Assembly (NCBI GenBank): GCA_024137785.1
Contig: JAHRHZ010000263.1
Coordinates: 25,957,334-26,021,333 of the forward strand
Origin: Ginglymostoma cirratum
Taxonomy: Eukaryota
Direction of reading: 5' to 3'
DNA: 64,000 nucleotides
The notes under the pieces are model-generated. The model made no database searches and had not been told where the DNA came from. It saw nothing but the letters and a program-made list of their open reading frames with translations. The translations under genes and the position numbers were made by a program. How positions within the stretch are numbered: position 1 is the first letter of the stretch; each line of letters starts with the position of its first letter. Positions 23,276 to 61,595 of this stretch are shown here, one piece after another.

Positions 23276-26200
23276 AAGAAAAAGTGAAACATCATTATGA
23301 GAAGATGGCTTCATTTTTTCTCTAAATCTTAACACTCTTACCACAAAATACAGATTTCAGTACTCTAAAGTTATACCTTTCATACTAATTCTAAATATAT
23401 ATACATGTTTTTTATATAGATATATATATATATTAAAAGTGGACCATACCAGTTCTATCTCATCTACAAATGTTCTTTTAAACCTGCGATAACACATCTG
23501 CCACAACATTTTTCCATCCCGCAACATGTACAATTTCTAAATTAAAAGCCTGTAACATAAGACGCCAATGAAATAGTCTCATTTTTGTCCTTAAATTTTT
23601 CCAAAAAGGTGAGAGAGTTGTGATCTGTATACACAACCATCTCTGAAATATTGTTTGTAACATAAACATTAAAATGTTGTAAGGCCAGTACCAAACTCAA
23701 TAATTCCTTTCCAACAATGGAGTATTTTCTCTGATGAATATTGAGTTTCTTTGAAAAATATCCAATTGGCCTTTTAATTCTGCTATAATCCGCCTGCATC
23801 AACATAGCTCCAACCCCTATATCGCTGACATCGATAGAGATTTTAAACAGTTTTGAGAAATTTGTTGTAGCTAAAACTGGGGCAGTGGTTAATACGGTTT
23901 TTAAATTCTCAAATGCCTCCTGGCATTATTCCGTCTACTGAAATTTCACATTCTTCTTTAGCAAATCTGTCAGCTGTGCCACCACGCTACTAAAAGTCAC
24001 ACAAACATCCAATAGAATCTGCTCAGTCCCAAAAGTCCAAGCACCTTTTTCTTCGAGGATAGTGTTGGAAATTCCTTGATGGCCTTTATCTATGTGTTCC
24101 TTAGGGTCATCCTTCCATGTCCAATGTTATGTCCCAAGAATGTCACTTCAGCCTTCGTGAATTCAGTTTGTGCTATGTTTATAATCAGCTTTGTCTCCTA
24201 TAGTCTTTCGAAGAGCTCTGCCAAATGCACCATGTAAGCTTTCCATGAATGGCTAAAGATCACGATGTCAGCTATGTAGATGGCACAATTAGTCAATCCT
24301 GCCACAACTCTTTGGCTGGTGCGTTCTTCATACTAAAGGGCATTACTTTAAATTGATACAGCCCATTTGGGGTTACAAATGCAGAAACTCCTTTTTCTCT
24401 CTCTGACAAAGGTACTTGCCAGTAACCACGGAGTAAGTCCAACTTGGTATTATAAGTGGCTTGTCCAACTTTTTCCACACAGTCCTCCAGTCTTGGAATT
24501 GAGTATGAATCTACTTACTTACAGCATTGACCTTCTGATAATCTACGCAAAACCGTTGAGTACCATCAGGCTTTGGAACCAACATGATTGGCAAACTCCA
24601 TTCACTTTGACTTAGCTTGATGACGTCTTCTTGCAGCATCACTTCCATTTCCTTCTGTATCTGTACGGCTTTAAGAGGATTAAGCCTATAGGGGTGTTGT
24701 TTTATCAGAACAGCATTGCCTACTTCAACCTCATGCACTATAGTACTAATTCTCCCCATTCTATTCCCACAGGTGTCCTCATATTTCTGCCACAAACCTC
24801 TTAATTCAGTCTGCTGTTCCTGAGACAGATAGCTCACTATTCTATCACATTCTGTAAGTACCTCCTTGTTACTTAACTTACTTTGAGGCACATCAAAATC
24901 AATTCCTCACTCGGAGTGTCAGTGACTAATACCTTTTTCTCCAGTTTCCTTTCCAAAGGTGTTAGGTTTATTAGTTCCTGTGGCTTTTCTACCATTTGAC
25001 AGGTATGACAAGTACAGCAATTTGAACCACATCCTTGTGCAATCCAGGCCAATAGAAGTGCTTTTGTATTTTAGACTGAGTCTTCCTTACTCCTAAATGA
25101 TCTCCTATCAGTAATTTGTGTGCTACTCATACCCCCTGTCTGTATGCTAACGGCTACACAATCTGTGCATTTCCACCCATTTCTCCTCTGTACTAACATG
25201 CCGAGGTCTCCGTTTTCGTCTTAGGATTTTATCTTTGAGCTTATAACACTCTGGAATACTTTCTGGTTCCTTTTCCGAGTAGGCTTTATAATATAGATCT
25301 TTTATTGTCTCATCTTTAACTCCAGTAATCTTTCAGAACTAAACACCTCTGCCTGATCCTCTACCTGCTTAGGTTCTTCTTTTACCATTTCATCAAACAG
25401 GGTATCAGCTAAGTGGACCTCAACTCCTTCGACTTTCTCTTTAGTTTTCCCCCTTTGCTTTAATCTTTGACTATGAGATCTTGTCACCACACAGTCCAGA
25501 AAAATTCCAGGGTATTTATCTTTTAACTCCTCAGTTCCCTGGTTTTCCTTCGGCTTCTCCATTACAAGGGATGTCACTCCCTCTTTTATTCCTGCCAGGT
25601 CATTTTCAAGAAAAAACTGCATTCCTGGAATTGACATTCTTTCAATCATTCCCACTTTCACTTCCCCAGTCTTGATTCGACTTTCCAACCTGATCTTACA
25701 CAGGGGAATGCTAAATCTGTCCATCCGCAGATTACCACTCTCTTGGGTAACATTTCAGAAGTAGCTAGCGTGAATATTTTCATCTCTTACAATTACAGAC
25801 TGACCAGCTCCCATATCTCTCAATGTTTTAACTTCTTTACCTTCGCTCCCTGTTCTTACTAAGTAAACTTTACCCACACAGGTGAAGTTTTTGTAGAGAT
25901 TGGGCACTGTCTCACTATCCAACCTGTAACAAGGCTATGCAGTCTTCTGTAGCTCCTTGACTTCTTTTGGGATTTCCTTCACTATCTCAGCTAATCCCAC
26001 TAGTTTAACATCTTTTACCACATTTAGCACTTTTTCCCAGTGCCTTTCTTAAACCACTGGCACTGTGACTTTGTGTCCCACTCCATTACAGTGAAAATAC
26101 CTGAAGCCTTTTGCCTCCTTTTCACGCTCTTGGGTTTCTTTTTTCACTCGTGGTAAACTGTTCCCAGTCTGATCTACTTTTTGTTTTCCATTGAAGGATC

Positions 26201-27416
26201 TCCCTTTTTCCCAATTTCTATCCCTCACGGAATGAAATTGCTGTTGAATGCTAAATTTCGATTTATGGACTGATACATATTCATCTGCCATATCTGCAGC
26301 TCTTCTTACTTTGTTAACTTGCTGTTCCTCAGTATGAGTTCTTATCATTTCTGGAAATGAGCTTTTAAACTCCTTCAGCAAAATAATTTCTCTAAGATCC
26401 TCATATGTCTTTTCTATCTTTAATGCTCTCACCTATCAATCAAAGTTGTTCTGTTTAATTCTTTCAACCTCGACATAACTCTGACCTGCTTCCTTCTTTG
26501 TGTTTCTGAGCCATTATCTAAATGCTTCTGGTACCAGTTCGTAGGTACTCAAAATACTCGGTTTAACCTCTTCACTATCTCTTGACACCATATCTGACAG
26601 TGCTGCAAACACCTCACTAGACCTGCCTACCAATTTGGTGTGAATTAACATTACCCACACAGTCTCTGGCTAATTCATCTGTTTAACAAATTTCTCAAAT
26701 GAAATGAAAAAGGGTTCTACATCCTTTTCATCGAAATTTCATAATATTTTGACGAATTTGTATATATCCCTACCATATCTTTGGCTACGATGGGTTTGCT
26801 CATCATTACTCTCCTCCTCACTAAACCTATCATTTACCTTCCTCTCCATTCTTTTAAATTGACTTTTCTGTTCAATTTGCAACTTTTAAGTTCAAACTCT
26901 CTCTCTCTCTTTCTCCCTCTCTTCTCACTCTCTTTTTGCTCAGCTAAGAACCTTCTCTCCCGTTCTTTATCTTCAGACATGACTCTTCTTTCGCTTTCTT
27001 TCTCTTCTGACTCCAATTGTCTAATTTTCAATTTAATTTTCTCTAACTCCACTGCACTTGCCTGTTTCTCTGGTATATCCAAATACTTGACCAACTCCTT
27101 TACGTTTGCACCTTTCCTCTTGTCCCTAGTAAAACCCAAATTTAGCCAGATTGCCAAGTCTAAAAGTATATCCTTGTTCTGTCCTTCTTAATTTTCTTGA
27201 CAAATTTGGGAAGCATCTTCAAATCCCAGAACCTCTTTAGCAATGTTAAGAGCCAGTTCCCGCACTTTTAATTTAACCTACCACACGTAACCAAAATTAA
27301 ACAGAATTTCCTCACCTAAGTTCTATTTTAGAGATCTAGGTCACTAATCCCCAAGTCTGTTTAATTCTGTTCAAATCCATTCAGATCTATTCAAATCTCC
27401 TACACAAACTGTCCAG

Positions 27417-35265: not shown

Positions 35266-36697
35266 CTCTAGCTTCACAAGTTAGCAACAGCAGCATGTCA
35301 ACAGCAACAACGGCTGTCCACTTTGGTCACCTTACAGCTTTTTTCCAAAGCAATGGGAATCACAAATCACAACCATTGAGTATTCAAATCACACTGCAGT
35401 GGCCTATTTGAACCAAAGGAGCTTCTACATAAATATGTAAGTGAACTATATACCCGATTGTGAATTCAGATCAGAGAAAGCCATGATCAAATTGTACAGT
35501 ACTCAGGTCAGGCCACCCTTGCAGAAAATGTTCATTTCTGCTCAGAGAAGATTGCAGAGAAAAATTATGAGACTGAGTTCTTAATAGTATTATGTGAGTT
35601 ATAAGGAAGTCTTTGGTTTTTCAGCCGAGAAACAAGGAGGGAAGTATTAAATTCTGATGACCTGGCAACGCAAACTGGCCACAGTTAAAAGAATTCCAAT
35701 ATTGAACTAGCAATACTAGAGTGGCCCTATTAACATTGAACTTTGGGCTTCAATTAATTTAGGCTGGAGAGCTAGAGGTACCTACTACACATGCTCAGGC
35801 AATTCGCTGTCAAAGTGAATACTAACTTTAAATTCAGACACATCACCAATAGCTGTCAGGGATAGGTTGATCAGAAGGGGTTTAAATATGGCCCAAAGAC
35901 TGTCTTCAAAATTGTTGTCGAATTTGAAAGCATCACAAAGCATTGTATTTTGGTGATGACTTCCAGTGGTCCCTTTAAGAATCTTTCATTAGGTTACAAA
36001 TAGACCTGGTTATTCTGAGCACAGCATGCCTGTAGAAGTCATCAAACCAGTGCTCAGTTATACTGAAAGGGTCTCATGCTCATTTATGTCTATCCTGGTG
36101 CTTTTTCCAAAGTTGCTGGTGACACACATTTTGGCACAGAATTTGCATTCTGTGGATTTGTATATGCATTACTAAGACTGCTAACTATTGTAAGCACTTT
36201 ATTGTAAGCATTTTAGATTATTTGTACCACAATACTTTAACACTAAGTCAGCATTTATAATTTTACAGGAATATGTTGTCTAAAGTCAAACACCACTTAC
36301 AATAGATTAACTACCTGATTTTCAAAACACATGAATGTTTACACATAAAGAATATGCTATCAGTTTCCTGAGAATGTTCCTAAAATTATTTAAAATATTA
36401 CAATTATTTCTACATCTTTGTAGCTATTTGTGAGGAATAAAATCTTAATGATTTACTATATTTCTTTCTTAACTTTGTTCTGTATCTATCCACTGCTACC
36501 AGGACAGACTATGTTGTAATTCAACACCTGTGAGAGACCTCGCCCATTAACTCGCTGGACTGCCCTAACAAGAATTTGAAGTAAACTTTAGGCAAACACA
36601 CAGTTGAGTTTACTATGTTTAAGCAACAAGATCCTCTAAGCATCTTTTCCATGTGAAGCTGGACTTTATTCCTCTCGTTTTTGATAAGACCACTTCA

Positions 36698-36902
36698 ATG
36701 GCATTTGACGATAGCAATTCGAACTCCATGAGGAAAGATACTGCAGATTTATTCCAGAATGGATTAAATTCAAGGCGGAGGGTTAGCCTTCCACCAGAAT
36801 TCTTGATGAGCATTGATAATTACGGAAAGGGTAATAGAAACTACAGGAACGCGGAGCAAGTACACTTAAGGCGCCCTAAGAAAAGACCGTCTATTTTTCA
36901 AG
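36698..36902 (+). CDS. Candidate alternative first coding exon, probably of FRY (MAFDDSNSNSMRKDTADLFQNGLNSRRRVSLPPEFLMSIDNYGKGNRNYRNAEQVHLRRPKKRPSIFQ)
   Basis: Unique sequence with retained CpGs. 68 codons plus 1 nt end at donor CAAG|GTAGGA (GT at 36903), phase 1 like the canonical FRY exon 1, on the same strand. In-frame stop upstream at 36620. Assignment to FRY is inference. Confidence 0.6.
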
Positions 36903-38087
36903 GTAGGAAATGTCTCTGTGATGTCAATTGGTTGTGATTGACGATTATTGAACAGTCTTTAAAATATATAGATTTCGGTATTTCTGTTGAAAATGACATC
37001 TATATGTGCCAGTTTAACAAGAAAAAACATTTATAGAGAAACATTAGTCAGATGAACATGTTCAGATGTGTTGACAGCTTCCCAGCACAATGTGCCAGAA
37101 GTAATGGTTTATAAACAACAGTTTAAAAAGTGCCCATAGCAAAAGTCTGTTTATGACTAGGTACTGATGATTGCGCAGCTAGTAATTGGTAAATAAGTTA
37201 TGCTTTGCATTCCTGTCCTTCAGCAGAGCCTGAAGATTGTTGATAAGAATGGTTATTTCAATCAAATCGCTACATGTTCTATGTGAGAATGTTGGTGCAT
37301 GTATACTTTAAGTTTACTGTGAAACAATATAAAAATATAAAACTTTCAGACAATGGACAATGTATTTTTATAATATTTATTATGATATAACTTATCATGT
37401 TTTTTCATGGGATGCAGGTATCACTGTCTAGGCCAGCATTTATTGTCCGTCCCCAATTGCCCTTGAGAAGGTGATGAATAGACATCATCATGAATACAAC
37501 TGAGTGGCAGCTACATTTGAGCACGTTTCACCATTGTGTCAAGCACATTACTGTGGGTCTAGATTCACCTATAATTATAGTTATACTTTTATCATTAATA
37601 TATAGGCCATTCAGGGTAACACATTTCCTTCCACAAAGGACATTTAGTAGAGGTGACTTGATTGAAGTGTGAAAGCCTGAAAAGTCTAATGGAGATGGAT
37701 GAAAAAGGATATTTCCTCTCATGGGTGAATCTAGAAATTGGGGTATTGTCTAAAATGAGGAACAAAATCTTCCCAGCCCCAAATGACATGGATCGTGTTG
37801 AGAAAGTTGGGGAAATCAGAAGAGATGTCCAGCTTCATTACTACCTAATTTCATCTCATTAATGCTCCTCACCGCTATGAGGAGAGGATCATGACAACGA
37901 CTGCCCCAAGTGGCAAAATTATTTTGCTCAGTCCCTTGATGCACTTGACTTAATTGTCAGGAACGCCTGCCTGAAGGGTGTCTGCCCTGACTTAATTGAG
38001 GACTATGCATTTTTCCCACTTGCTGTCTAGAAACTGGAAGGCAAGAATTCTGAACATGAAAGTCAGAGCTGTTGCCTGGCAGCTCCA

Positions 38088-42411: not shown

Positions 42412-43076
42412 TGATAACAAGGTGTAGAGCTGGATGAACACAGCAGGCCAAGCAGCATCAGAGGAGCAGGAAAGCTGACGTTTCGGGTCTGGACCCTTAT
42501 TCAGAAAGNNNNNNNNNNNNNNNNNNNNNNNNNNNNNNNNNNNNNNNNNNNNNNNNNNNNNNNNNNNNNNNNNNNNNNNNNNNNNNNNNNNNNNNNNNNN
42601 NNNNNNNNNNNNNNNNNNNNNNNNNNNNNNNNNNNNNNNNNNNNNNNNNNNNNNNNNNNNNNNNNNNNNNNNNNNNNNNNNNNNNNNNNNNNNNNNNNNN
42701 NNNNNNNNNNNNNNNNNNNNNNNNNNNNNNNNNNNNNNNNNNNNNNNNNNNNNNNNNNNNNNNNNNNNNNNNNNNNNNNNNNNNNNNNNNNNNNNNNNNN
42801 NNNNNNNNNNNNNNNNNNNNNNNNNNNNNNNNNNNNNNNNNNNNNNNNNNNNNNNNNNNNNNNNNNNNNNNNNNNNNNNNNNNNNNNNNNNNNNNNNNNN
42901 NNNNNNNNGCCAGGCAGCATCAGAGGAGCAGGAAAGCTGACATTTCAGGTCGGGACCCTTCTTCACAAATTTCATGTCAGCTTTCCTGCTCCTCTGATGC
43001 TGCCTGGCCTGCTGTGTTTCTCCAGCTCCACACTGTATTATCTCTGACTCCAGCATCGGCAATTCTTACTATCTCT
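42412..43076. mobile_element. Penelope-like hairpin element(s) (C) spanning the assembly gap
   Basis: Arms homologous to A, B and E on both sides of the gap; hammerhead-like cores at 42476-42507 and 42937-42966 (minus); tail GACTCCAGCATCGGCAATTCTTACTATCTC. Confidence 0.8.
42509..42908. other. Assembly gap (400 N)
   Basis: Run of N bases. Confidence 1.
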
Positions 43077-58465: not shown

Positions 58466-60779
58466 TGAAAATCAGATCATAAAGCAAAGAGGCCTTTCAA
58501 ACAGGCACCTTTAGAAGATTCTCATATTTGATAATTGGGTGTTGTGAGGTTTATGGGTAGTCAAAGAAACAAAGGACACTTGAGCACACTGTGAGGACAA
58601 GTGCAACCAAAACTGCATGATGCCCAAAATTGTATGATTTTTTTCAAGCCACGTTCTTGTCTCCATCTAGGTTACACATTGTACAAGGTGCAGATACAGA
58701 GAAAGCTCCAAGCCATTGTTTCAGTCATGCACCAACTGCAGATTATTGTTATAAAACACCAAAGTACAGGGCAGCCATGTGAATCTTTAATTTTTGGTAA
58801 GCCCTACTTCTTAACAAAATACAGTGCAATCACATTGAGTCAAAATTGAATAACCCAAATCTTCTGTTGTGGTGAAATTGGCAGCCATTCCTGCTGCCAG
58901 AATAAGAAATCCAACAGAAGGATGCCCATCACAACTTAAAGTTCTGGACTGGTAACTCTGAAAAGTGGAACTTATGCTAGCTTGTCATGTGACCACATCA
59001 ATGAATCAGAACAGAGTTAGGCCACCTTACGACACAAAATGCGGGTCTGGCAAAACATGAAGCCTGAAGAAGAATCGGGGGACCTGGCAGAGCTGCTCAA
59101 TTTTTACAGCAATTCGGCTTTTGATTCAACATTGAGATCTCTCTTTCAAGCCTTGCAAGTATGGCTAAAGAGGTTGAGGACCCTGAAGAGTCCAATAAAC
59201 CACATACCTGTTTCTCTAGCTGATGCCGCAGAGGCCGTAGAGATGCTCCTGGATTGTAGGTAAAACTAGGTTGCTTTGAAGCCTTGTCGCCTAACTCAAA
59301 GCTCTACGCTGCACGAATCTGAGAAGGCCTCCTGTATGATTTGATCTATTGTGATATTACTGTAGTAGTTGATAACCTGATAACATTGTGAAAAACTAAT
59401 TTTTCAATTTCCAAATCTTTTAAATATTTGTTATACATTCTATTTTCTAAGTGTATGTACATTTGTAGGTTATTTGATGAACTGTTAAAGGAGTTTCACA
59501 AATAGTATGCTGGCAAGAGTTAAGTTTCTCAAACTGTTGGAAAAAATCGTTAAGGTTGTGCAAAGGATTGTTGAAATGTTTTGCAGAATGTTTAATATAA
59601 CAAAGGAGTGTTTACACTGCAAAGATAGTTGCTTTCAATTTGAAGAGAAAATCATTATATGTACTGATCTTTATCTTCAGTAGTCAGCATTGAAAATGTC
59701 TCCACTCAAGAAATTCAATGAGCCAATTTTTGGTGTGGCAGGGCATCTATGTTAAAACCTAGCCCTCAAGCCTACAGTTCATTTTTTTTCAAAACAGATG
59801 AAATTGTTGGAAGTGGGAGCTGTTAAAAGCAGAGGAAATCAAGACACCTGGGACATCAGTTATCAGTGAAACAGATAACTTCCTCAGCAATGACAATTAA
59901 GAATTGGAAAATAAAGTGGAAGGACTGAGGAGGGAAAAGTAATGAGGTGAATTCAATGTCAAATCAGATACAAGAAGTTATGTAAAGAGAAAGAAAGATT
60001 GGAAGAGAGAGAAGACAAAGGAAAAAGACAATCTTGTTAACCCAAGTGTAAAATTTGACATTTTTAAATTATTAAAATCATGTGAAGGAATGAGACCACG
60101 CACTTCAAATTTCAGTGCAAGAAATGTGGATTGCAGTCACATTGTTAGCACTTGGAATTACGAGCGAGCCAGAAAAATCTGCCGTAGGTTTAATTTCTAT
60201 TTACCATGCAAATACAGCAATTTCGCAACATTGAAGGAAGCAAACAGCAAAATGCAGTTTTTGTGCTGCTAATGTGGCACAACGGTACAGCTCGCATAGA
60301 AACTTTTGGATCTTTGCGTTTAACTGTTCATCTGCCTCTCCCCTAAGATTATACACATTTAACGTACAAATAACAACGGTCAGCATGTTTGTGTTTTAAT
60401 GTCAAAATCTACAGAATTTAAGGTGGCTTGCATGCTATCATTTCATAAGTGCAATAGCTGGAAATAGCTTCTGAATTCTGAGGCATTGTATCCAGGCAGA
60501 TTTGATGCTGTCGCTGCATGCTTTATGTGACTGTAGTAAGTGCTGTAATTAAATTGATGTGGGACCACTACAACCATTTATTAATATGAGACAAGATGTC
60601 ACTATTTCTTTAAAATGAATTATATTGTATGGGAATTAAAGAAGTAACATTTATCCTACCTGCCTAGAAAATATTTTTTGATCTTGATTGCATCCAATGA
60701 TAGCATGTATTTAAACTGCTGATAGTGTGTTTGAATAATCAGAAAATATTTACCACAAGGCGAAATAACAACAAAAAAG

Positions 60780-61595
<816 letters not shown>

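Follow-up and report, generated by a model that had tools for sequence, protein, structure and literature searches.

The stretch from 36698 to 36902 of the analysed window, a 64,000-nucleotide piece of Ginglymostoma cirratum DNA, very probably serves FRY as an alternative first coding exon (hereafter exon 1a), which gives rise to an isoform of its own. Exon 1a opens with an ATG, contains 205 coding bases and ends in phase 1 at the splice donor AAG|GTAGGA; canonical exon 1, which also ends in phase 1, is located 24,619 bases further downstream (Table 1). The N-terminus encoded by exon 1a consists of 68 residues and is basic, whereas the canonical one consists of 23 residues and is uncharged, and the exon 1a isoform is thus 45 residues longer. 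Exon 1a contains eight CpG dinucleotides, which results in an observed/expected ratio of 0.92 compared to 0.24 for the window. The exon 1a peptide has a single match in the 4.36-Gb genome, and in two DNA runs (X1 and X4) the depth over the exon is flat and confined to a single contig. An earlier note on this DNA had described a repeat-free, CpG-retaining reading frame of 68 codons, which ends at this donor in the same phase as a 23-residue canonical exon 1 located 24.6 kb downstream, and this description holds in every point. Four ATG-open frames of at least 205 nt that end at a phase-1 donor-like site are present on the plus strand of the window, and the combination of a reading frame and a donor is therefore weak evidence when taken alone; that exon 1a is more than a chance frame is settled by a spliced contig and by its conservation.

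Table 1. Positions in the window of the features of FRY exon 1a, its upstream region and canonical exon 1.
Feature	Position	Strand	Evidence
Conserved non-coding block, likely promoter of exon 1a; CACCTG in both sequences	36489..36572	+	Alignment to L032
5' untranslated part under the spliced contig	36586..36697	+	X3 contig, whose first base does not mark a start site
Out-of-frame upstream ORF in the 5' UTR, 13 codons	36615..36656	+	
Exon 1a of FRY, coding part (68 codons + 1 base, phase 1)	36698..36902	+	ORF, contig joins, homologues
RRxSLP, residues 27-32 with S30; predicted basophilic kinase and 14-3-3 mode-I-like site	36776..36793	+	Invariance
HxRRxKKRPSIF basic block, residues 56-67 with S65; predicted second basophilic site	36863..36898	+	Invariance
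Splice donor GTAGGAAATG, used; same in L032	36903..36912	+	Contig joins, alignment to L032
Canonical FRY exon 1, coding part (23 codons + 1 base, phase 1), also joins exon 2	61521..61590	+	

Several other features of the window were noted. The intron behind exon 1a contains a fragment of a very high-copy repeat at about 37400-37480, where the summed contig depth reaches up to 480,000 and is more than 10,000-fold deeper than over exon 1a. Decayed retrotransposon-like ORFs with stretches resembling reverse transcriptase and RNase H, as judged by eye, are located on the minus strand at about 23500-27200, and a run of N flanked by repeat copies lies between both first exons (about 42500-42930). 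Upstream of canonical exon 1, the stretch 60700-61520 is richer in CpG (observed/expected 0.72), which is consistent with a canonical promoter.

Splicing of exon 1a to FRY

Exon 2 of FRY, which has 200 nt and runs from phase 1 to phase 0, lies beyond the window (G000:C263:26050672-26050871) at a distance of 56.4 kb from the exon 1a donor, and is followed by exons 3 and 4; exons encoding PF14222 are found downstream on the same strand. No stop occurs in the 199 residues encoded by exon 1a and exons 2 to 4, and the frame running from canonical exon 1 through exons 2 to 4 is open as well. The matching stretch of the protein P0032, whose N-terminus is common to records named FRY, shares 77% identity with exon 2; the paralog on contig C49 shares 55% over residues 12-66.

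The earlier note had proposed that exon 1a could splice to exon 2 in frame; this join is present in a contig of run X3 (745 nt, depth 6.4). Positions 1-317 of the contig record correspond to 36586-36902 of the window without a single difference and end at the donor, and positions 316-518 correspond to exon 2, which is preceded by the final 30 letters of exon 1a and followed by exon 3. The two letters AG at the junction fit either side, and the predicted coordinates agree. The matches to exon 1a and to exon 2 were taken as one 745-nt record because length, depth, coordinates and loose ends agree. Another contig from X3, 166 nt long, leads from canonical exon 1 into exon 2 through the same acceptor. 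Both first exons compete for one acceptor in X3, which bears out the proposed swap of the 23-residue N-terminus for exon 1a, and the two different 5' joins indicate that both FRY starts are used in one sample.

X3 is taken as RNA from its joins, as its run type is absent from the record and none of the seven runs listed is entered as RNA; contigs cannot give the transcription start, strand, level or tissue. For the junction in the kin of this animal, the evidence is one contig from one of the six runs compared, three of which are DNA: in X1 and X4 for exon 1a and in X2 for exon 2, the exon borders are read through as genomic DNA. X6 and X7 lack any match to exon 2, and X6 also lacks one to exon 1a; neither run is evidence for or against the junction. 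The same junction is also found in two proteins of 564 aa, P0032 (contig of 1902 nt) and P0033 (1788 nt), both of which read SIFP-ASPVGNGY across it into FRY and carry PF14222; from their similarity to a lemming record, both proteins look rodent-like. In X3 as well as in these two proteins, exon 1a is spliced to FRY and not to another gene.

Conservation of exon 1a across vertebrates

Using a word-free protein search with the window peptide, 18 matches were obtained, 14 of which cover the exon at 48-57% identity with E values down to 7e-12. Word-based protein searches with the same peptide came back blank; since the word-free search found homologues, this reflects a limit of sensitivity. P0017-P0020, four of the 18 matches, were dropped because these proteins are long or repetitive and match over a short stretch. 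The homologues of exon 1a have 68 residues without indels, and those with a named source come from a bat (Molossus molossus), a pangolin (Smutsia gigantea), two sea turtles (Natator depressus and Eretmochelys imbricata), a ground squirrel (Callospermophilus lateralis) and a lemming (Lemmus lemmus). A search with a mammal-like homologue gave 13 matches out of 30 candidates, including P0032 and P0033. Of 53 proteins collected, 39 were chosen by sequence pattern and yielded 24 unique cores, all of which have 68 residues with neither indel nor stop, and M1-A2 is conserved. The 14 proteins left out are P0002, P0017-P0020, P0009, P0013 and seven records without the exon motifs; five of these seven were inspected and are read-through ORF calls that stop before the exon. 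In the unfiltered alignment, R27, R28, S30, L31, P32, N48, N51, H56, R58, R59 and K61-F67 are invariant in 15 of 15 sequences.

At the DNA level, exon 1a was compared with one distant vertebrate locus, L032. The identities at the three codon positions are 69, 68 and 50%, and dN/dS is about 0.23, a value from one pair only with a dS of 1.67, which is near saturation. The donor of L032 is identical over ten intron bases. The low dN/dS, the codon-position bias, the intact frame of all 24 cores and the conserved M1-A2 argue that the exon 1a peptide is under selection. Judged from these sequences, turtles and mammals share exon 1a with this animal, and the start, frame and donor of the exon are retained in distant vertebrates. 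None of the three outcomes that the earlier note had listed as refuting its reading was observed.

Close relatives differ from the window at no fewer than five positions in the 205 nt (about 2.4%), which is similar to at least 37 differences in 1560 nt overall. Among the close-relative differences listed, four replacements and one silent change fall in exon 1a, compared to one replacement and three silent changes in exon 2. The close relatives show no constraint on exon 1a; these numbers are small, and the replacements are all located outside the motifs. The listed exon differences at 36720, 36811, 36852, 36860 and 36889 are common to two related organisms as compared to the window, and through them three of the eight CpGs of exon 1a are absent in both organisms. 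The residue at 36720 is Leu in the relatives and in 23 of 23 distant homologues and Ser in the window, and the window Ser is therefore probably derived.

A basic tail with two invariant serine motifs

The motifs RRRVSLP (residues 26-32) and RRPKKRPS (residues 58-65), to which the earlier note had drawn attention, are both found in the peptide. R27, R28, S30, L31 and P32 are invariant in all 25 unique cores as well as in the 15 aligned sequences; R58, R59 and P60 vary in a few sequences beyond the 15-sequence alignment. Of the predicted sites, RRxS at S30, RxxSxP and KRxS at S65 each occur in 25 of 25 cores, where the selection pattern partly determines the count for S65, which agrees with the unfiltered alignment (15/15). 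Neither the strict form RSxSxP nor the NDR/LATS consensus HxRxxS/T occurs in any of the 25 cores. A strict nuclear localisation signal (NLS) of the type K(K/R)x(K/R) is found in one of 25 cores and is absent from the window peptide, and a loose NLS pattern (three basic residues plus P or H) is found in all of them.

In 20,000 shuffles of the peptide, RRxS occurs in 10.6%, RxxSxP in 5.8% and a basic cluster in 7.0%; the combined RRxSxP, a pattern picked after the fact, occurs in 0.58%. Each motif alone is thus common in shuffled sequences, and it is the conservation of the motifs rather than their presence that counts as evidence. Both basophilic motifs fall exactly on those parts of the peptide that do not vary, and this speaks in favour of a function. 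The net charge of the tail is +6 to +10, compared to 0 for canonical exon 1. AlphaFold2 predicts neither helix nor strand (pLDDT 60, pTM 0.14), which points weakly to disorder as the input comprised only 15 sequences. No Pfam family was found on the exon 1a peptide and no PDB match for exon 2; the best hit in the ESM Atlas, with a score of 0.78, is below recognition level and was rejected.

We consider it fairly probable that exon 1a is a conserved alternative first exon whose basic tail serves as a phosphorylation switch, thereby positioning the FRY-NDR scaffold. The specific version, a kinase/14-3-3 switch on this tail, is tentative and falls a little short of an even chance. According to this model, promoter choice would swap a short uncharged segment, which is common to FRYL, for a regulated basic tail, which may be disordered. 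A PKA-type basophilic kinase would phosphorylate S30 (RRxSLP) and S65 (KKRPSIF), and phospho-S30, aided by S65 35 residues away, would bind a 14-3-3 dimer, to which paired sites are suited. The binding of 14-3-3 would neutralise or mask the basic tail, thereby switching off an electrostatic anchor, and the tail would then be released from an acidic partner, which could be microtubule tails, the membrane or importin.

The main rival to the phosphorylation switch accepts the isoform as real; however, it takes the motifs as a constitutive signal for docking or targeting, be it nuclear import or binding to microtubules, the membrane, FRY's own repeats or a kinase, instead of a 14-3-3 phospho-switch. 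This is somewhat unlikely. No invariant run is longer than the basic block K61-F67, which together with the invariant H56, N48 and N51 exceeds what a kinase consensus needs, the loose NLS pattern is universal among the cores, and the available text of PMC7987989 reports Fry in the nuclei of some cells. However, a serine in a basophilic context stands at the centre of each invariant block, S30-x-P32 is invariant, and the strict NLS is nearly absent. The nuclear targeting suggested in the earlier note is accordingly weakened, in that the loose basic pattern stands in every core and the strict signal does not. H56, N48 and N51 are explained by neither the switch nor the docking reading.

In its widest form, the switch would mean that a FRY-specific isoform, selected by promoter use, is maintained in jawed vertebrates, and that its basic tail with two serines in tandem, by placing the NDR1/2 scaffold under the control of cAMP/PKA and 14-3-3, decides between nuclear and cytoplasmic pools; we regard this as unlikely. 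If true, a cAMP/PKA-controlled isoform would explain the conflicting reports on Fry localisation, and work based on the canonical cDNA or on start-codon morpholinos would have missed the exon 1a isoform.

Probable promoter and translation start of exon 1a

Exon 1a likely has its own promoter, which we infer to be the conserved non-coding block upstream of it. The block forms an ungapped 84-bp local alignment with L032:1299-1382, with a score of 66.5 vs 26.7 +/- 3.5; none of 500 shuffles reaches this score, and controls taken downstream (in the intron) and far upstream are at null level. It is also matched by read-through translations of amniote (mammalian) records; it is out of frame with exon 1a and contains a stop in this genome. 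The shared CACCTG is presumably of the E-box type.

Exon 1a could alternatively be the first coding exon without being the first exon, with transcripts that start further upstream and splice into it. The first base of the X3 contig is no start site, and a pyrimidine-rich AG is located at 36687. Furthermore, in P0009 (bat) and P0013 (ground squirrel), other first residues are joined onto exon 1a at about residue 10-11, which reflects either an internal acceptor used from a further-upstream exon or an artefact of gene prediction. However, from 36586 onward the X3 contig follows the genome without a break across this AG, the conserved block ends 14 bases before the contig starts, and P0024, the sister record from the bat, starts at the conserved M1; splicing from a further-upstream exon thus appears rather improbable.

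A start of translation at M1 is indicated by L032, which has an in-frame stop three codons before the ATG. In the window, an in-frame TAA is located upstream of M1 at 36620; such a stop ahead of the exon also speaks indirectly for a separate promoter. Of the 25 cores, 23 contain no internal Met. All three in-frame ATGs have a T at -3, which is also found in L032, and because of this context and the upstream ORF, initiation at M1 may be leaky. In L032, the roughly 380 bases upstream are free of out-of-frame ATGs, and the 13-codon upstream ORF therefore does not look conserved. It could be argued from the T at -3, the upstream ORF and the in-frame Met codons in exon 2 that only the promoter matters, that ribosomes mostly bypass a weak M1 and start at a Met of exon 2, and that the isoform simply lacks the canonical start. 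The dN/dS, the codon-position bias, the intact cores and the conserved M1-A2 make this very unlikely. The reading as a chance ORF, a repeat fragment or a noisy splice without function, to which the four ORF-plus-donor candidates and the lack of constraint among close relatives would be congenial, is already refuted by the same junction being spliced in two distant lineages, by the single copy of exon 1a and by the strength of its conservation.

FRYL and known systems

The paralog FRYL on contig C49 has a homologue of canonical exon 1, in which 19 of 23 residues are identical, and an exon 2 of phase 1 with the same build as exon 2 of FRY. In L017:3182-3250 (G000:C49, minus strand) and L011, the homologue of exon 1 is located about 52 kb upstream of FRYL exon 2. 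A homologue of exon 1a is absent from the 200 kb upstream of FRYL exon 2 (best E 0.12), and none was found for FRYL genome-wide at E 0.001. On this sequence comparison, the canonical start is older than the split of FRY and FRYL, and exon 1a is, as far as searched, specific to FRY. FRYL has a short form, presumably starting at an internal Met; given the upstream coding exon and the open frame before that Met, FRYL likely has a longer N-terminus than this form.

FRY acts as a scaffold for NDR1/2; its localisation is context-dependent (cytoplasmic, membrane or nuclear), and reports on nuclear vs cytoplasmic localisation are discrepant, according to the available text of PMC7987989. FRY activates NDR1/2 and is tied to the control of the spindle, YAP and morphogenesis (available parts of PMC8699626 and PMC7987989). 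In the text available of PMC7987989 and PMC3759375, FRY is treated as one protein with one N-terminus and the word 'isoform' is not used; rat FRY from mammary tissue is described in the latter as 3011 aa, based on 5'/3' RACE. In the main texts of openly accessible papers, no study of the exon 1a isoform was found, and three exon 1a peptide strings are absent from the papers searched; phosphopeptides could be listed in supplements.

The canonical vertebrate FRY is encoded by the same gene and is identical from exon 2 onward. The orthologous exon is carried by two Molossus molossus records, KAF6452376.1 and KAF6452377.1 ('FRY microtubule binding protein'), both of which comprise 108 residues and lack a continuation into exon 2; the database protein searches covered records of up to 2,000 residues, and full-length FRY isoforms have about 3,060. 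As a bat record is already named FRY, exon 1a is not new as a sequence. Among human Ensembl entries there is probably a FRY isoform that exceeds the canonical form by about 45 residues. Alternative first exons are commonplace, and databases already annotate this one; exon 1a therefore represents a neglected isoform rather than a new kind of system. A second start that has been kept for long and carries two invariant serine motifs offers a precise and cheap handle, namely two point mutants and an isoform-specific junction.

A known parallel for isoform-specific control by AGC kinases and 14-3-3 is the pair CHO1 and MKLP1 of Kif23. The Kif23 sites are tested HxRxxS sites of NDR/LATS kinases, whereas those of FRY exon 1a are predicted and do not fit this consensus, although some NDR/LATS substrates lack the histidine (available text of PMC4320110). 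As described in the same text, the alternative exon of Kif23 adds basophilic phosphosites that could change the binding of 14-3-3, and it is in this respect that exon 1a, as predicted from its sequence, would resemble it.
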